From NCBI GenBank assembly GCA_028703745.1, contig JAQVME010000002.1, positions 1-26,440 on the forward strand: a DNA stretch of 26,440 nucleotides, written 5' to 3'. This document shows, piece after piece, positions 9,174 to 26,440 of this stretch. This DNA comes from Clostridia bacterium. Its GTDB lineage: Bacteria; Bacillota; Clostridia; Christensenellales; DTU072. The notes under the pieces are model-generated. The model saw only the letters and a program-made list of their open reading frames with translations, was not told where the DNA came from and did no database searches. Both the position numbers and the translations under genes were made by a program. Numbering within the stretch: the stretch's first letter is position 1; each line of letters begins with the position of its first letter.

Positions 9174-9188
9174 AAAGATAACTTAAAA

Positions 9189-9437
9189 CCGATGAGACAG
9201 AGTAGTAGCTTATCTAACGATTTTTCAGAGAGTTCTGGGGCGGTGTGACAGAACAAATCCGGTAAGTGAATGGACTGTTGAGGGCAAAGGCGAAATTAGC
9301 AGTAGCTTTTGACGGAATCCCCCGTAATAGGGAAAGAGTATGATAGTACTCGAGAATGAAGGTAACAAAGTCATTTGTTATGAAATTGGGTGGCAACACG
9401 ATATATTCGTCCCAAAACGAATTTATCGTGTTTTTTT
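9189..9437 (+). ncRNA. Tryptophan T-box riboswitch
   Basis: AGAGA box at 9227. Apical stem GTTCTG/CAGAAC with GGTGTGA loop. Specifier GAA-TGG-A (UGG at 9271-9273). AGTA at 9301. Stem III TAACAAA/TTTGTTA. T-box AATTGGGTGGCAACACG (9384-9400). Antiterminator and terminator with T-tract. Confidence 0.9.
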
Positions 9438-9577: not shown

Positions 9578-10960
9578 ATGAATAAGAAAATACCCGTAAA
9601 GATATATTTAACAGAAGACGAGATGCCGAAATCCTGGTATAACCTTCGCGCCGACATGAAGCAAAAGCACGAGCCTTTCCTTCATCCGGGCAAGCTTGTT
9701 CCCTGCACACCCGAAGACCTGTATCCGGTGTTTTGTAAGGAGCTAGTAAAGCAGGAGCTTGATCAAGAGAACAGATATATAGAAATACCCGAAGGAATAA
9801 GGGATTTTTACAAGATGTACCGCCCGTCGCCCCTCGTTCGCGCATACTTCCTCGAAAAGCTGCTGGATACTCCGGCGGAAATCTATTACAAACACGAAGG
9901 CAATAACACCTCCGGTTCACACAAGCTCAATTCCGCGGTGGCTCAGGCATATTATGCCAAACAAGAAGGGTTGACATCGCTTACAACAGAAACCGGAGCA
10001 GGACAATGGGGCTCGGCGCTTTCTATGGCATGCGCTTTCTATGGAATTGACCTCAAGGTCTATATGGTAAAAATCAGCAGTCAGCAGAAGCCTTATCGGA
10101 AGGCGCTCATGGAGACTTATGGCGCGAACGTAATTCCCTCTCCTTCGGATACGACGAATGTCGGCAGAAAGATACTTGAAGAAAACCCGACGACGGGCGG
10201 CTCTCTCGGTTGCGCTATCAGCGAAGCTATCGAAGTCGCCGTGACGACGGACAACTGCCGTTATGTGCTAGGAAGCGTGCTTGACCACGTACTGCTGCAC
10301 CAGTCGATTATCGGACAGGAGTGCAAGATAGCCATGGACAAATACGGCATCAAGCCCGACATAATAATCGGTTGCGCCGGCGGCGGCTCCAATCTCGGCG
10401 GACTTATAGCGCCTTTTATGGCAGGCAAAATAAACGGTACCGACGACACACGCATCATAGCCGTGGAGCCGTCGTCCTGTCCGTCGCTCACGCGAGGGAA
10501 ATACGTCTATGATTTCGGCGACACAGGCAAAACTACGCCGCTAATGAAGATGTATACTCTGGGTTGCGGTTTTATGCCTTCAGCCAACCACGCCGGCGGA
10601 CTGCGCTATCACGGCATGAGTCCTATTATCTCCAAGCTTTATGACGACGGCTACCTTGAAGCGAGATCTGTTGAGCAGACGGCAGTTTTTGACGCCGCCA
10701 TAATGTTTGCCAGAACCGAGGGCATCCTGCCTGCGCCGGAATCCTCACATGCCATAAAAGTGGCTATAGACGAGGCGCTGGAATGCAAGAAGACGGGGCA
10801 GAAAAAGACCATTCTTTTGGGAATGACTGGCACGGGCTATTTCGATATGACGGCATACATTGCGTATAACGAAAAGACCATGACGGACTATATCCCTACG
10901 GAAGCCGACCTCGAGCAGGGCTTTGCGTCATTGCTAGACATACCTCAAAACAAGCAGTAA
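9578..10960 (+). CDS. trpB: TrpB-like PLP enzyme (TrpB2, stand-alone tryptophan synthase beta)
   Basis: 460 aa with the long N-terminal extension of TrpB2. GSHKLNSA (PLP Lys), TETGAGQWG, GCAGGGSN, GGLRYHG and APESSHA motifs. Confidence 0.93.
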   Translation: MNKKIPVKIYLTEDEMPKSWYNLRADMKQKHEPFLHPGKLVPCTPEDLYPVFCKELVKQELDQENRYIEIPEGIRDFYKMYRPSPLVRAYFLEKLLDTPAEIYYKHEGNNTSGSHKLNSAVAQAYYAKQEGLTSLTTETGAGQWGSALSMACAFYGIDLKVYMVKISSQQKPYRKALMETYGANVIPSPSDTTNVGRKILEENPTTGGSLGCAISEAIEVAVTTDNCRYVLGSVLDHVLLHQSIIGQECKIAMDKYGIKPDIIIGCAGGGSNLGGLIAPFMAGKINGTDDTRIIAVEPSSCPSLTRGKYVYDFGDTGKTTPLMKMYTLGCGFMPSANHAGGLRYHGMSPIISKLYDDGYLEARSVEQTAVFDAAIMFARTEGILPAPESSHAIKVAIDEALECKKTGQKKTILLGMTGTGYFDMTAYIAYNEKTMTDYIPTEADLEQGFASLLDIPQNKQ

Positions 10961-12945: not shown

Positions 12946-13023
<78 letters not shown>

Positions 13024-13048
13024 CAAAAACAAAAGAAAAAATTTCTAT

Positions 13049-13125
13049 GGCGGCGTAGCTCAGCTGGTTAGAGCGGCCGGTTCATACCCGGCAGGTCGTT
13101 GGTTCGAATCTGACCGCCGCTACCA
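13049..13125 (+). tRNA. tRNA-Met (CAT, elongator)
   Basis: GGCGGCG acceptor stem, GCCGG-TTCATAC-CCGGC anticodon arm, encoded CCA. Resembles Bacillus elongator Met rather than Ile2. Confidence 0.92.
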
Positions 13126-13131
13126 ATACCG

Positions 13132-13206
13132 GGCCCCATGGTCAAGCGGTTAAGACATCGCCCTTTCACGGCGGTAACAGGAGTTCGAACCTCCTTGGGG
13201 TCACCA
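13132..13206 (+). tRNA. tRNA-Glu (TTC)
   Basis: TCGCC-CTTTCAC-GGCGG anticodon arm, cloverleaf fold, CCA. Confidence 0.95.
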
Positions 13207-13212
13207 ACGCAA

Positions 13213-13288
13213 GGGAGCATAGCTCAGCTGGGAGAGCGCCTGCCTTACAAGCAGGATGTCATAGGTTCGAGCCCTATTGTTCCCACCA
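13213..13288 (+). tRNA. tRNA-Val (TAC)
   Basis: CCTGC-CTTACAA-GCAGG anticodon arm, cloverleaf fold, CCA. Confidence 0.95.
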
Positions 13289-19012: not shown

Positions 19013-19612
19013 TTACGCCAGTTTTAAGATTGTCATCGAGGCTCCGGTTGCTGTGTCGGGGCTGGGGGCAAGCCCGGTTGCCAAAGTGACGGCGGCGCCA
19101 AGGTTGACAAGGGCAATTACGGCAGCTACCGCAAGGGTAATGATTATGCTGCCGTGCGTTTGAGTGGCGCCCGTCCGTGAAACGAAGGTTCTTGCCGCGG
19201 CGGTGACGCCGTTTATAGTTATACCCCATGCGCCGTCGGTACTTGTGACGGAGGAAACCTGAAAATTAATCAAGTAGGTTCCTGCCGAGAGCACGATACT
19301 TGAACCGGGAGGGCTGAACGCGATAGGTGCAGGTGATGCCGGCGAATTGAAAACTACGGCTTCGGAAGGGCTCACTTGCTGCGCAAATGTGGAATATATA
19401 TACGCCGAAGCGACGATTCCGGGGGGTCCCGGCGGTCCCGGCAGACCGGGAAAGCCCGGAGGTCCCGGCAAACCGGGAAAGCCTTGCGGGCCTCGGGGAC
19501 CCGTCAAGCCTATTGGTCCCTGCGGTCCTCTCGGTCCCGGCGGACCGGAGGGACCGACGACAGGAAACCTGAAGACCGGTCTAAAACAACAATCTCTATC
19601 AAAACAACTCAT
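19013..19612 (-). CDS. Collagen-like protein with BclA-type C-terminal domain (putative spore surface protein)
   Basis: Cys-rich N-terminus, 16 consecutive Gly-X-Y triplets (residues 20-67), beta-rich C-terminal domain (AVVFN...GTYLINFQV). AAGGAG SD. Confidence 0.82.
19434..19487. repeat. 27-bp tandem duplication in the collagen region
   Basis: GGTCCCGGCAGACCGGGAAAGCCCGGA followed by GGTCCCGGCAAACCGGGAAAGCCTTGC (encodes GFPGLPGPP twice). Confidence 0.75.
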
Positions 19613-19715
19613 TATTTTCTCCTTTTGTTGAATGCTTTACGCTATTACATATTATGAGTAGCGCATAAATTTTGACAAAAGAACCAATCTTTTTTTATAA
19701 TATGAAAAAAGATGC

Positions 19716-19743
19716 TTGACAAGCGCAAATATTGTGTGATAAT
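19716..19743 (+). promoter_or_regulatory. Sigma-A promoter of the ilv-leu operon (TTGACA-16-TGt-GATAAT)
   Basis: Consensus -35 and extended -10. Confidence 0.75.
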
Positions 19744-19791
19744 GTAAATTCATAGAAGAAATGCATACAATGTAGTATCTTGAGGAGAAAC

Positions 19792-19902
19792 ATGCAGATA
19801 GCGCTTGCCTTGGCAAACATTATAATAATTAGCATCATTAGCATTATCGTACTAGTACTAGTAGATAGTGTAGATAAGGTTTTGCCCAAAGTTGCTGGTT
19901 AA
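19792..19902 (+). CDS. ilv-leu leader (attenuator) peptide MQIALALANIIIISIISIIVLVLVDSVDKVLPKVAG
   Basis: GAGGAG SD. 20 of 36 codons are Ile/Leu/Val. Lies between the promoter and a terminator preceding ilvB. Confidence 0.85.
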   Translation: MQIALALANIIIISIISIIVLVLVDSVDKVLPKVAG

Positions 19903-19934
19903 ATTGCTATATGCAAATTAAAAATGATAATCAC

Positions 19935-19962
19935 GACCTACGGCAAACCCGTAGGTCTTTTT
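19935..19962 (+). terminator. Attenuator terminator upstream of ilvB
   Basis: GACCTACGG-CAAAC-CCGTAGGTC, a perfect 9-bp stem followed by T5, 19 nt before the ilvB ATG. Confidence 0.9.
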
Positions 19963-19981
19963 ATAAATCCAGGAGGACACC

Positions 19982-21646
19982 ATGAAAATCAGCGGAGCGA
20001 GAATATTAATAGAAGAGCTAATTGCCCACGGCGTGGACACCGTGTTCGGATATCCCGGTGGCACGGTACTTCATATCTACGACGAACTTTATAAGGCAAG
20101 CGACAAAATAACGCATTATATATCCGCCCATGAGCAGGGCGCAACCCATGCTGCCGACGGCTACGCAAGGGTCACGGGCAAGACCGGAGTCGTCATTGCC
20201 ACGTCGGGACCCGGCGCCACGAACCTCGTGACGGGCATTGCAAACGCCTATCTGGACTCCACGCCTCTTGTCGCCATAACCGGCAACGTAGCGACTACGC
20301 TTATAGGTCGCGACAGCTTTCAAGAAGTAGACATCACGGGCGTGACTATGCCCATAACAAAGCATAACTTTATTGTAAAAGACTTGAAGAGGCTTTCTGC
20401 CGTCATAAGAGAGGCGTTCATAATCGCCAACAGCGGCAGACCCGGTCCGGTGCTTGTTGACATACCAAAAGACATCCAAATAGCGGAGATAGAGTATACG
20501 CGAGGAGAGGTGTCAGAGGCAAAGCAATGCCACGAGAACGGCAAGGAAGCCTTTTCGCGGGCCATAGAGCTTATCACAAAGGCAAAGAGACCGTTCATAT
20601 ACGCAGGAGGCGGAGTAATCATTTCCAATGCGACGAAGGAGCTTGAGCAGTTCGCCGAAATCATCGATGCGCCGATAGGCAGCAGTATGATGGGACTTTC
20701 TGCCATGGACGCCAAGAATCCGAGGTTCCTCGGAATGACGGGAATGCACGGCAAGTTCGCCGCCAGCAAGGCTATGTCCGGTAGCGATTTGCTTATCGCC
20801 ATAGGCACGAGATTCTCGGACAGAGCCACGGGCAACAAACAGGAATTTTGCAAGGGCAGAAAGATTATACACATAGATATCGACCCTGCGGAGATAGGCA
20901 AGAACATTCCGGCATACGTGTCGCTTATTGGCGACGTCAAAGAAGTGCTGACAAAGCTCAATTCGCGCCTCGAGCCTATGGTTAAGACCTCTTGGAGACA
21001 GGAGATTGACGACATAAAGAATTGTCCCGACTCCCATCTCGAGATGAATAAGACTAGGCTTAATCCTCAAAGCATAATAGAATGCGTAAACAAGCTTGCT
21101 CCGCCCGACACTATTATAGCCACGGACGTGGGACAGCACCAGATGTGGACTGCGCAATACTACAAGTTCACCAAACCGAGAACCTTTATCACTTCGGGAG
21201 GACTGGGTACAATGGGCTTTGGGCTCGGCGCCGCAATAGGAGCCGCCATAGGAACGGGGAGAAAGACGGTGCTGTTTACTAGTGACGGCTGCTTCCATAT
21301 GAATATGAACGAAATGGCAACGGCGGTTACCAACGACCTTCCTATTATAGTAGTGCTTATGAACAACAACGCTTTGGGAATGGTGCGGCAGTGGCAAACG
21401 ACCTTCTTTGAAAAAAGGTACTCAAACACCACGCTGAACCGCAAAACCGATTATGTCGCGCTTGCTAAGGCGTTCGGCGCCGATGCAAGGAAGATTTCCT
21501 CGCTTTCCGAGATGGAAGAAACGCTGAAGTGGGCTTTCGAGCAGAAGGGGCCGGTGCTTGTTGACGCAATTATTAACAACGACGAAAAGGTGCTGCCATT
21601 TATTCCGCCGAATGGCACAATTAATGATATAATACTGAAGGGGTGA
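19982..21646 (+). CDS. ilvB: Acetolactate synthase large subunit
   Basis: VFGYPGG, HEQGA, TSGPGATN, DVGQHQMW and SGGLGTMG motifs, plus ThDP motif SDG...NN. Confidence 0.97.
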   Translation: MKISGARILIEELIAHGVDTVFGYPGGTVLHIYDELYKASDKITHYISAHEQGATHAADGYARVTGKTGVVIATSGPGATNLVTGIANAYLDSTPLVAITGNVATTLIGRDSFQEVDITGVTMPITKHNFIVKDLKRLSAVIREAFIIANSGRPGPVLVDIPKDIQIAEIEYTRGEVSEAKQCHENGKEAFSRAIELITKAKRPFIYAGGGVIISNATKELEQFAEIIDAPIGSSMMGLSAMDAKNPRFLGMTGMHGKFAASKAMSGSDLLIAIGTRFSDRATGNKQEFCKGRKIIHIDIDPAEIGKNIPAYVSLIGDVKEVLTKLNSRLEPMVKTSWRQEIDDIKNCPDSHLEMNKTRLNPQSIIECVNKLAPPDTIIATDVGQHQMWTAQYYKFTKPRTFITSGGLGTMGFGLGAAIGAAIGTGRKTVLFTSDGCFHMNMNEMATAVTNDLPIIVVLMNNNALGMVRQWQTTFFEKRYSNTTLNRKTDYVALAKAFGADARKISSLSEMEETLKWAFEQKGPVLVDAIINNDEKVLPFIPPNGTINDIILKG

Positions 21647-21650
21647 CAAA

Positions 21651-23200
<1,550 letters not shown>

Positions 23201-23226
23201 AAATCATATAACAAAAAGGAGCCATT

Positions 23227-24885
23227 ATGAATTCGGACAGCATAAAGACAGGTGAGGAGCGAGCGCCTCACCGCTCGTTGCTCAAGGCTTGCGGCATGTC
23301 AAAAACCGAGATGTCAAGGCCGATAATAGGCGTGGTCAATTCGTTCAACGAGATAGTCCCCGGACATATCCACCTGAACGAAATAGCCAGGGCAGTCAAG
23401 GACGGCATACTTGCCGCGGGAGGAACTCCGCGCGAATTTAACACTATCGGCGTCTGTGACGGCATCGCCATGGCGCATCAGGGAATGAAATATTCGCTAT
23501 GCACCCGCGAGCTGATAGCCGACAGCATCGAGTGCATGGTAAACGCGCACCGTTTTGACGGACTGGTATTTATACCCAATTGCGACAAAATCGTGCCCGG
23601 CATGCTTATGGCTGCGGTAAGGCTGGATTTGCCCTCCATATTTGTTTCGGGCGGAGCCATGCTTTCCATAGCCGGCGAGAACGGCGAATACCTCGACCTC
23701 AACAGCGTTTTTGAAGGCGTGGGCAAAATCAAGGCAGGCAAAATGAGCCTTGAAGAGCTCGACGAGCTGGAAGAAAACGCGTGTCCGACGTGCGGCTCCT
23801 GCTCGGGCATGTTCACCGCCAACTCTATGAACTGCCTCAGCGAGGCAATAGGTATAGCCTTGCCCAAGAACGGCACAACCCCTGCGGTATATGCCGAAAG
23901 AATCAGACTGGCTAAGGCAACAGGCGAACGCATAATGCAGCTTGTTCGTGACAATGTTACGGCGAGAAGCATAATAAACAAAAAATCCATAAGGAACGCC
24001 CTGACCGTAGATATGGCGCTGGGCTGCTCGTCGAACACCGTGCTGCACCTTGCGGCGATTGCAAGGGAGGCGGAAGTGCCATTTGATTTGAAATTAATAA
24101 ATGAGATAAGCTCCGTCACACCCAATCTATGCAAGCTTGCGCCTGCGGGCAAATACCACGTTCAGGACCTGCACCATGCCGGCGGCGTGCAAGCGGTTAT
24201 GAAAGAGCTTGCAAAGAAAGGCCTACTCGACCTCTCGTTGCCCACCGTTAACGGCACCGTTGGCGAAAACATCGCCGCCGCCAGAGTAAAAAACAGCGAG
24301 GTAATAAGACCCGTGGAGAATCCGCACAGCGCGACAGGAGGGCTTGCCATACTTTACGGCAACATCGCCAGAAACGGCGCCGTCGTAAAGAGGAGCGCAG
24401 TCGCTAAGAATATGCTCAAGTTCCGAGGCAAGGCAAAGGTTTTTGACAGCGAGGAGGCAGCAACAGCGGCTATCTACAAAGGCGAAATCACAAAAGGCGA
24501 CGTAGTCGTCATCAGATATGAAGGTCCGGCGGGCGGTCCCGGGATGAGGGAAATGCTTTCTCCCACCTCGGCGATTGCAGGCATGGGACTTGACGCCGAC
24601 GTGGCGCTACTCACCGATGGCAGATTCTCCGGAGCTACGAGAGGCGCGGCAATAGGACACATTTCTCCCGAAGCGAGAGAAGGCGGCGACATAGCGTATA
24701 TTGAGAACGGCGACTTTATTGACATTGACATAAACAATTATTGCATATCTCTCGATGTTTCCGAAGCTGAAATGCAGATAAGAAGACAAACAAAACAACT
24801 AAAGGCGCAACCGGAGCTGACAGGCTATCTGAAAAGATACGCCAGACAGGTAGGCTCGGCGGACACCGGCGCCTCCTTTAAATAA
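23227..24885 (+). CDS. ilvD: Dihydroxy-acid dehydratase
   Basis: [49 protein letters not shown] and TDGRFSG motifs. Confidence 0.97.
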
Positions 24886-24904
24886 TAAAAACAAGGGGAC
24901 GAAC

Positions 24905-26407
24905 ATGAACAGGATTAAGATATTTGATACAACGCTGAGAGACGGGGAACAAGCGCCCGGCTGCAGTATGCATCTCGACGAAAAAATCGAGGTGGCGCTA
25001 GCTCTCGAAAAGCTGAGGGTTGACGTAATGGAAGCAGGTTTCTCCGTCATCTCCAAAGGCGACTTTGATGCCGTCCAAACCATTGCTAACACCGTGAAGA
25101 ACGCTTCGGTAGCCAGCCTTGCAAGAGCCGTAAAAAAGGATATTGAGAGCGCCTACGAGGCGCTTAAAGGAGCAGTAAGCCCCAGAATTCATACCTTTAT
25201 TGCGACGTCGCCCATTCATATGGAATACAAACTGAAGATGAGCGGCGACAAGGTACTCGAGACCATTTTCGATACGGTTTCTTATGCAAAAAGCTTCATT
25301 AATGACGTGGAATTCTCGGCGGAGGACGCTACGAGAAGTGATAAGGAATTCCTTGCTAAGGCAGTACATACCGCCATAAAGGCAGGAGCGACAGTAGTCA
25401 ATATACCCGACACGGTCGGCTATACCACACCGATAGAAATGTTCGACCTTATTACTTACCTTATGAACAATGTCGACAACATCCATAAGGCAGAGATATC
25501 CGTGCATTGCCACAACGATCTCGGCATGGGAGTAGCCAACTCGCTTGCCGCCGTCAGAGCAGGAGCCACGCAGGTGGAATGTACCGTTAACGGACTTGGC
25601 GAAAGAGCCGGCAACGCCGCGCTCGAAGAGATAGTCATGGCGCTCAACACCCGCAAGAACATCTACAACGGCTACACAAATATTGACACGACACAGATAT
25701 ATAGAGCCAGCAAGCTGGTATACAACGTGCTGGGACTCTATTCGCCGATAAACAAGGCCATTGTCGGCAGCAACGCCTTTGCGCACGAAGCAGGTATTCA
25801 TCAGCACGGCGTACTGGCGAACAGAGAAACGTACGAAATAATGACTCCCGAGTCCATCGGACTGCCGAAGAACAACATGGTATTCGGCAAGCACAGCGGC
25901 AAGCACGCCATCGAAAACAGACTCAAGGAGCTGGGCTTTGAACTTTCAAAGGACGAAATGGAGGCCTTCTTTGTCAAATTCAAAACTTTAGCCGACAAGA
26001 AAAAGACCATAAACGACCTTGATCTTCAGGCTCTGCTGGGACACACCGAAAAGGAAATAACCTCCAAAGGCTACAAGCTTGACAGATTCACCGTCAACAC
26101 CGGCAACTATATTACGACCAACGCCGTAGTAAGACTGTCGGACGGCGAAAAGCTTTATGAAGAGGTAGCTATAGGCGACGGTCCAATAGACGCTGCCTAC
26201 AATGCCATCAACAAGATTCTTAAGGCGCCCGAGCATTCCTTGGATGACTATGCGATACGCTCTATAACCGAAGGCAACGACGCGCTGGGCGAAGTAGTCG
26301 TCAGAATAAAATGCGGTGATTGCGTCATAACCGGCAGAGGACTTTCCACCGACATTATTGAAGCAAGCTTGCTTGCCTACATCAACGGCATGAACAAGCT
26401 GATATAG
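24905..26407 (+). CDS. leuA: 2-isopropylmalate synthase
   Basis: [31 protein letters not shown] and HEAGIHQHG, plus C-terminal Leu-binding regulatory domain (GDGPIDA, EGNDALG). Confidence 0.93.
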
Positions 26408-26421
26408 GCGTAAGGAACGAT

Positions 26422-26440
26422 ATGAAAACCATAGAAATAT
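26422..26440 (+). CDS. 5' fragment of next operon gene (MKTIEI..., truncated by window edge)
   Basis: AAGGA SD followed by ATG, 14 nt after the leuA stop. Confidence 0.5.

Follow-up and report, generated by a model that had tools for sequence, protein, structure and literature searches.

A probable leader-peptide attenuator responding to isoleucine, leucine, and valine ahead of ilvBNCD-leuA in an order of Clostridia

What controls the ilvBNCD-leuA operon in a Clostridia genome that shows neither a T-box before ilvB nor a CodY protein? The window, that is, the whole stretch of 26,440 nucleotides analyzed here, comes from a metagenome-assembled genome (1.5 Mb, 233 contigs, 76% complete, 46.6% G+C) and carries this operon at its 3′ end, the contig ending at position 26440, after leuA. 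All five genes score above NCBIfam cut-offs, in agreement with the operon assignment of an earlier reading of the letters alone (hereafter the sequence-only reading), and ilvB has its own Shine-Dalgarno (SD) element, GGAGGA, at 19972–19977. That reading had proposed that the DNA preceding ilvB encodes a multivalent attenuator. Given the recurrence of the arrangement in relatives, the preference of cognate strands for each other, a compensatory antiterminator core, a ribosome-sized spacing, and folds computed under ribosome masks, we consider it very likely that the locus is a classical ribosome-mediated leader-peptide transcription attenuator, which would sense Ile, Leu, and Val together and control ilvBNCD-leuA. 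The sequencing runs that hold this DNA are DNA runs only, from landfill, manure, and wastewater metagenomes, and no RNA run is listed among them.

Searches for the other known controls of branched-chain amino acid (BCAA) operons gave negative results. At the gathering threshold, no T-box or other Rfam 15 family was found in the leader (19600–20050) or in 16 related leaders. At E ≤ 10, the same interval returned just eight weak and unrelated families, none of them a leader family and none of them RF00230, which bears out the earlier statement that no T-box precedes ilvB. The Rfam search covered 20 related loci, with T-boxes serving as positive controls (window 9183–9417 and locus L013, which belongs to another family of the same order). 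The T-box at 9183–9417 (131 bits) is the only one in the window and in the genome (76% complete), a very low count for a member of the Bacillota, and it precedes a 460-aa PLP-dependent (PALP, TrpB-like) gene at 9578–10960. CodY (TIGR02787) was found neither in this genome (76% complete) nor in 40 genomes of the family, 27 of which are of high quality (at least 90% complete), and no match to the CodY box, with up to three mismatches allowed, lies near 19600–19800. The gene upstream of the leader is divergent, so the terminator in front of ilvB cannot belong to an upstream gene. The product of this divergent gene resembles exosporium proteins of spore formers. Farther upstream in the window, at 12946–13285, four tRNA genes form a cluster.

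An open reading frame (ORF) with its own SD and ATG sits between a promoter and ilvB, in this genome as in its relatives (table 1). Promoter, SD, 36-codon frame, and Ile/Leu/Val composition, including the run at codons 10–24, were all found as the sequence-only reading had described them: Ile, Leu, and Val make up 20 of the 36 codons and 13 of the 15 codons of the run. The exact peptide is absent from a collection of 15 billion proteins. The TTGACA box and the TG-extended −10 of the proximal promoter (P2) are kept at the equivalent position in the related loci L003, L004, L005, and L007, and the leader transcript probably starts near 19750, from P2. The role of the distal promoter-like site (P1) is uncertain; another promoter-like site, on the minus strand and for the divergent gene, overlaps it.

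Table 1. Features of the leader and its surroundings, with counterparts in two cultured carriers (window positions unless a locus is named)
Feature	Position	Strand	Description and basis
Divergent upstream gene	19013–19612	−	Collagen-repeat protein with BclA C-terminal domain
Distal promoter-like site, P1	19672–19701	+	TTGACA-18-TATAAT, 12/12 matches; sequence; conserved in L003, degenerate in L004
Proximal promoter, P2	19716–19743	+	TTGACA-16-TGTGATAAT, extended −10 (TG)TGATAAT, 11/12 matches; sequence
SD of leader ORF	19782–19787	+	GAGGAG; sequence; AAGGAG or GAGGA at equal spacing in L003–L005
Leader ORF	19792–19902	+	ATG at 19792, 36 codons + TAA (19900–19902); translation; 9 Ile, 5 Leu, 6 Val
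Region 1 (candidates)	19805–19836	+	1a GGCAAAC 19812–19818, 1b AATTAGCATC 19827–19836; duplex energies 1a:2a −7.5, 1b:2b −9.6 kcal/mol
Regulatory run, codons 10–24	19819–19863	+	IIIISIISIIVLVLV; translation; two rare CTA Leu codons inside
Region 2 (antiterminator 5′ strand)	19878–19900	+	2a GGTTTTGCC 19878–19886, 2b GTTGCTGGTT 19891–19900
Region 3 (antiterminator 3′ strand)	19929–19948	+	AATCACGAC 19929–19937, second GGCAAAC copy 19942–19948; overlaps whole 5′ arm and loop of terminator; folding, co-variation
Intrinsic terminator	19935–19962	+	Stem 19935–19943/19949–19957 (9 bp, 6 G-C), loop 19944–19948, T tract 19958–19962 (TTTTT)
Operon	19982–26407	+	ilvB 19982–21646, ilvN 21651–22154, ilvC ends 23200, ilvD 23227–24885, leuA 24905–26407; all above NCBIfam cut-offs
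Leader ORF, Oribacterium sinus DSM 17245	L030:1036–1131		Annotated "hypothetical protein HNQ46_001909"; MBB6041918.1
Leader, Oligosphaera ethanolica DSM 24202	L023:984–1162		VFISLANLIIVIILSVIVLLGVSALGVLPEPT, GTG start, plus terminator before ilvB; NZ_JAUSVL010000001.1

The combination of an Ile/Leu/Val-rich ORF with a terminator is not a product of chance. Over the six frames of the 1.5-Mb genome, 8 of 19,930 small ORFs (15–60 aa) reach the richness of the leader, defined as at least 10 Ile, Leu, or Val in any 12-residue window. A scan of the 465 intergenic regions that precede genes and measure 100 nt or more found 13 SD-preceded ORFs ending near a terminator, and the ilvB leader is the only one among them with a strong amino-acid enrichment. 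The richest other ORF among those inspected (contig C98) lies antisense inside a 781-aa gene and was discarded as a chance ORF. No further leader-peptide attenuators, whether for His, Trp, Thr, or other amino acids, were seen in the genome by a simple scan.

The sequence-only reading had also drawn attention to the ATA, GTA, and CTA codons of the run. The idea that these are rare codons is ruled out by genome codon usage for ATA, the commonest Ile codon (47%), and for GTA, which is of average use (26%), whereas CTA is indeed rare (6.7%), and we retained the idea for this codon alone. Among Leu codons, CTA accounts for 23% in 17 leaders and for 7% in the ilvB genes next to them (Fisher p = 3e-5, the relatives not being independent). 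The rare CTA codon and a CTAGT motif recur in the leaders of several families, and the Ser codon inside the run (ATTAGC) is also widely kept. Within the run, the Val-Leu-Val-Leu-Val codons contain the palindromic GTACTAGTAC, around which a hairpin can form (19841–19872) that might act in pausing or belong to region 1.

The sequence-only reading had proposed a search of the ilvB leaders of relatives, and the same arrangement was found before ilvB in 38 other genomes. In a first sample, ilvB was searched in 40 related genomes, which yielded 17 loci with readable upstream DNA; at 10 of these, an Ile/Leu/Val-rich ORF of 29–42 codons is followed by a terminator. These 10 comprise three species of the same genus, five further genomes spread over four genera of the family, and members of two other families. 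In a wider sample of the order, 22 of 79 evaluable loci were positive, and six more leaders came from named or other genome records, including those of Oribacterium sinus DSM 17245 (Lachnospiraceae) and Oligosphaera ethanolica DSM 24202 (Lentisphaerota). Within the order, the leader is present at 32 of 96 evaluable ilvB loci, in 10 families, and it accompanies nearly every ilvB whose identity to that of the window is 59% or more. The 90%-identity cluster of the O. sinus peptide (MBB6041918.1) has 24 members, found on more than 1000 contigs.

Although the leader sequences barely align, most have an SD, and all keep an open frame of 29–48 codons and the Ile/Leu/Val run. The overall composition of 17 leaders (I 18%, V 15%, and L 14% vs. 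F 3%) reflects this bias, and the peptides share little else. Other families of the same order have a T-box before ilvB (L013, L019, and L022); in L013, T-boxes stand both before and after ilvB (L013:1181–1437 and L013:3262–3497), which indicates that T-box and leader peptide alternate at this operon within one order. At the remaining loci of the order, those with neither leader nor T-box, nothing was recognized before ilvB.

The terminator (−14.2 kcal/mol, 5-nt loop) is the sole terminator-like site in 19400–20100. One is found at the equivalent place in 39 of 39 leaders; in an alignment of nine sequences (A2), it is 86% paired, with three pairs changed on both sides. The segment formed by regions 2 and 3 folds at −14.6 kcal/mol and is mutually exclusive with the terminator, whose 5′ arm it takes up; the two structures thus differ little in energy, which is what one expects of a kinetic switch. 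Region 2 spans codons 30–36, and its last base is the T that opens the stop codon TAA. The 9-bp terminator and the repeats from which the switch had originally been deduced (GGCAAAC, present twice, GGTTTTGCC, GTTGCTGGTT, and AATCACGAC) were all recovered.

The capacity of the end of the ORF to pair with the terminator is general. Its last ~20–25 nt pair with the 5′ arm and loop of the terminator in 17 of 17 leaders, more stably than in dinucleotide shuffles (mean z −1.8, Fisher combined p = 2e-8); because the relatives are not independent, such p-values overstate the evidence. A control that is independent of composition consisted in comparing cognate and non-cognate duplexes. Over 15 leaders, region 2/region 3 duplexes average −16.2 kcal/mol when both strands come from the same leader and −11.4 kcal/mol when they do not (permutation p = 5e-5). 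The antiterminator core (A2 columns 108–115 with 177–184) is 95.5% paired, four of its eight pairs being compensatory; its score was reached by none of 500 shuffles, and slid registers fall to 35–53% paired. Examples of matched strands are GTTTTGCC/GGCAAAAC, GTACTGCC/GGCAGTAC, and TTAATGCCTA/TAGGCATTAA. The core also accounts for a conserved peptide motif near the end of the ORF, "LPK": an invariant TGCC pairs with GGCA of the terminator, whereas the Pro codon varies freely at its unpaired third base, so the motif is best explained at the RNA level.

The helix between regions 1 and 2 is less certain than the other elements, with moderate support from pairing and comparison. The 1:2 helix originally put forward, GGCAAAC with GGTTTTGCC (1a:2a), is supported by its predicted duplex energy and by 75% pairing in A2, where two pairs show changes in both strands, but the best fold of the full-length leader pairs 2b instead with AATTAGCAT, inside the Ile run (1b:2b). 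Cognate 1:2 binding beats non-cognate binding (p = 1e-4), with a position that shifts between genera and is not conserved outside the closer relatives.

The spacing of these elements is that expected if a ribosome operates the switch. Measured over 39 leaders, the distance from the last codon of the run to the start of region 2 has a median of 19 nt (IQR 16.5–25), and that from the start of region 2 to the stop codon a median of 20 nt; the corresponding distances in the window are 17 and 19 nt. The first roughly matches how far a ribosome extends downstream of its A site. With such a spacing, region 2 would stay accessible while a ribosome stalls in the run and would be covered by one that has reached the stop codon.

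Two alternative structures do not by themselves tell what selects between them, and a trans-acting factor (an RNA-binding protein, a small molecule, or an uncharged tRNA) might set the switch in place of the ribosome, the ORF then being a by-product of the RNA sequence. The T-boxes found before ilvB in related genomes of the order (L013, L019, and L022) lend some weight to this idea. We nevertheless hold it to be highly improbable: the Rfam search that recovered the T-box control in L013 detected no T-box, riboswitch, or other match here or in the 16 related leaders, and there is no conserved unpaired block fit for a ligand or protein site. Nor would a by-product be expected to keep its start codon, its SD (in most leaders), its frame length, and its Ile/Leu/Val run across sequences that barely align, or a distance of ribosome size between that run and region 2.

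The attenuator reading was further examined by folding the nascent RNA of the window, up to the terminator loop, under a 30-nt ribosome mask. With stalls at codons 12, 16, 19, 22, and 24, the best nascent fold is the 2:3 antiterminator, which is lost with a ribosome on the stop codon. The logic of read-through and termination set out in the sequence-only reading is thereby reproduced, the antiterminator being best unless the ribosome stands on the stop codon. In classical attenuators, absence of translation leads to termination. Here, the untranslated nascent RNA also favors the 2:3 antiterminator, so that this behavior is not clearly predicted. In every modeled condition, the terminator prevails at equilibrium as soon as arm 4 has been added, and the model therefore depends on co-transcriptional kinetics, that is, on the order of synthesis. 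For the same reason, equilibrium pairing probabilities under masks, computed for 17 leaders, were abandoned as too crude a measure; the quantity "arm 3 paired upstream" used in it also counts unrelated pairings. The evidence relied on instead consists of the nascent-RNA folds, the cognate and non-cognate duplexes, and the co-variation counts.

That the terminator is the equilibrium structure in all modeled states is also what one would see if it were constitutive and partly leaky, lowering operon expression without any sensing of amino acids. This explanation leaves the conserved Ile/Leu/Val run, the co-varying antiterminator, and the conserved spacing unaccounted for, and we give it an even smaller probability than the trans-acting factor. 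The least probable of the alternatives is that the leader is a genuine gene for a small hydrophobic membrane peptide, a tiny transcription unit in itself that is closed by the terminator, with a place before ilvB that is incidental or just polar: the peptide does resemble one transmembrane helix, its O. sinus counterpart is annotated as a hypothetical protein, and Ile/Leu/Val-rich peptides are also simply hydrophobic (which we counted against the attenuator reading), but across families it is conserved in Ile/Leu/Val content alone, the TGCC core at its C-terminal end tracks the terminator GGCA by compensatory changes, the ORF always lies between a promoter and ilvB with its end complementary to the terminator 5′ arm, and no separate ilvB promoter lies 3′ of the terminator.

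Returning to the ribosome-mediated attenuator, the arrangement of these elements leads us to infer that the leader is translated, that ribosomes stall in it, and that the outcome responds to amino-acid supply, in the following way. Transcription would start from the proximal promoter, and the 36-codon leader would be translated while the RNA is being made. When charged tRNA-Ile, tRNA-Val, or tRNA-Leu is short, the ribosome would stall within codons 10–24, its front edge just short of region 2, which could then pair with region 3, block the terminator, and permit read-through into ilvB. When the amino acids are plentiful, the ribosome would reach the stop codon and cover region 2, leaving region 3 to pair with region 4 (19949–19957), and transcription would end at the T tract near 19960. 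The weaker pairing between regions 1 and 2 probably favors termination once the ribosome has gone or if the leader is untranslated.

Mechanisms of this kind are well known. In enterobacteria, the leader of ilvGMEDA has 32 aa, 15 of them BCAA, and that of ilvBN 32 aa, 11 of them BCAA (PMC6123439). The present locus resembles these leaders (ilvL and ivbL) in its multivalent Ile/Leu/Val peptide of similar length (~32 codons there), in the BCAA operon that follows, in its terminator and overlapping antiterminator, and in the proposed logic of ribosome position; it differs from them in showing no sequence similarity, in its Clostridia host and ilvBNCD-leuA gene order, and in a 1:2 helix that is weaker and variable in position. 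A 2018 review describes ribosome-mediated attenuation of BCAA operons as common in Gram-positive bacteria (PMC6123439). BCAA leaders have been tested experimentally in S. aureus and Listeria and predicted or tested in Lactococcus, Streptococcus, and Corynebacterium (PMC6123439; PMC5794164; PMC5864092; PMC10272879; PMC11857589). The S. aureus ilvBNC leader, Rli60 of Listeria monocytogenes, and the leaders of Lactococcus lactis, Streptococcus, and Corynebacterium glutamicum share mechanism, pathway, and Gram-positive setting with the one proposed here, but their hosts are Bacilli or Actinobacteria, several of which combine the attenuator with CodY, whereas CodY was not found in the 41 genomes searched here. 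By description, the S. aureus leader is Leu-rich, while ours is Ile-dominated, with Val and Leu. The T-box leaders (RF00230) that precede ilv-leu operons in Bacillota stand at the same place in the genome and likewise act through a terminator/antiterminator switch; unlike the attenuator proposed here, they sense uncharged tRNA directly and need no translation, and no T-box match exists at this locus.

In the literature searched, from which the 2010 survey of Lopatovskaya et al. was absent, a BCAA leader-peptide attenuator is undescribed for Clostridia; a genome-wide study of 2010 deemed "regular" leader peptides in Firmicutes notable, in that case for his genes (PMC2965389). The suggestion of the sequence-only reading that the attenuator might be undescribed for this lineage fits both this result and the lack of an Rfam family, and concerns the lineage, the mechanism itself being textbook. 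The probable attenuator is widespread in one order of Clostridia and uncatalogued, and belongs to a well-known kind. The conceptual gain is accordingly modest. For annotation, it adds an uncatalogued regulatory element in a large and mostly uncultured group of Clostridia, where the leader ORF goes uncalled or is labeled a hypothetical protein. It also suggests how BCAA synthesis is controlled in a family where CodY is not found, and it presents T-box and leader peptide as interchangeable solutions at one operon within one order. The practical gain is a clean and well-conserved family with two cultured carriers, O. sinus DSM 17245 and O. ethanolica DSM 24202.

The second of these carriers belongs to another phylum. 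The ilvB of O. ethanolica is 67–69% identical to that of the window and its leader keeps the "LAN ... VLP" motifs, which suggests that the operon crossed phyla along with its attenuator. A broader scenario would have one ancient, uncatalogued attenuator family act as the main BCAA sensor of the CodY-less Clostridia of this order, inherited with an ilvB clade and moved across phyla into Oligosphaera (Lentisphaerota). We put it forward tentatively, and would sooner bet against it. If it were true, these Clostridia would have kept the device so widely that their transcription and translation would have to be tightly coupled, or synchronized by pausing, in contrast to the "runaway transcription" described for Bacillus subtilis.

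Two minor features concern translation at the edges of the leader. The end of the leader and the spacer are overlapped by a tiny second frame with a TTG start (19892–19921, MLVKLLYAN), probably a by-product; L003 and L004 have frames that resemble it without being equal to it. In the relative L010, within the ~20 nt that precede the leader ATG, the −10 box lies only ~11 nt from that ATG and no clear SD is seen; the leader may there be translated from a nearly leaderless mRNA.
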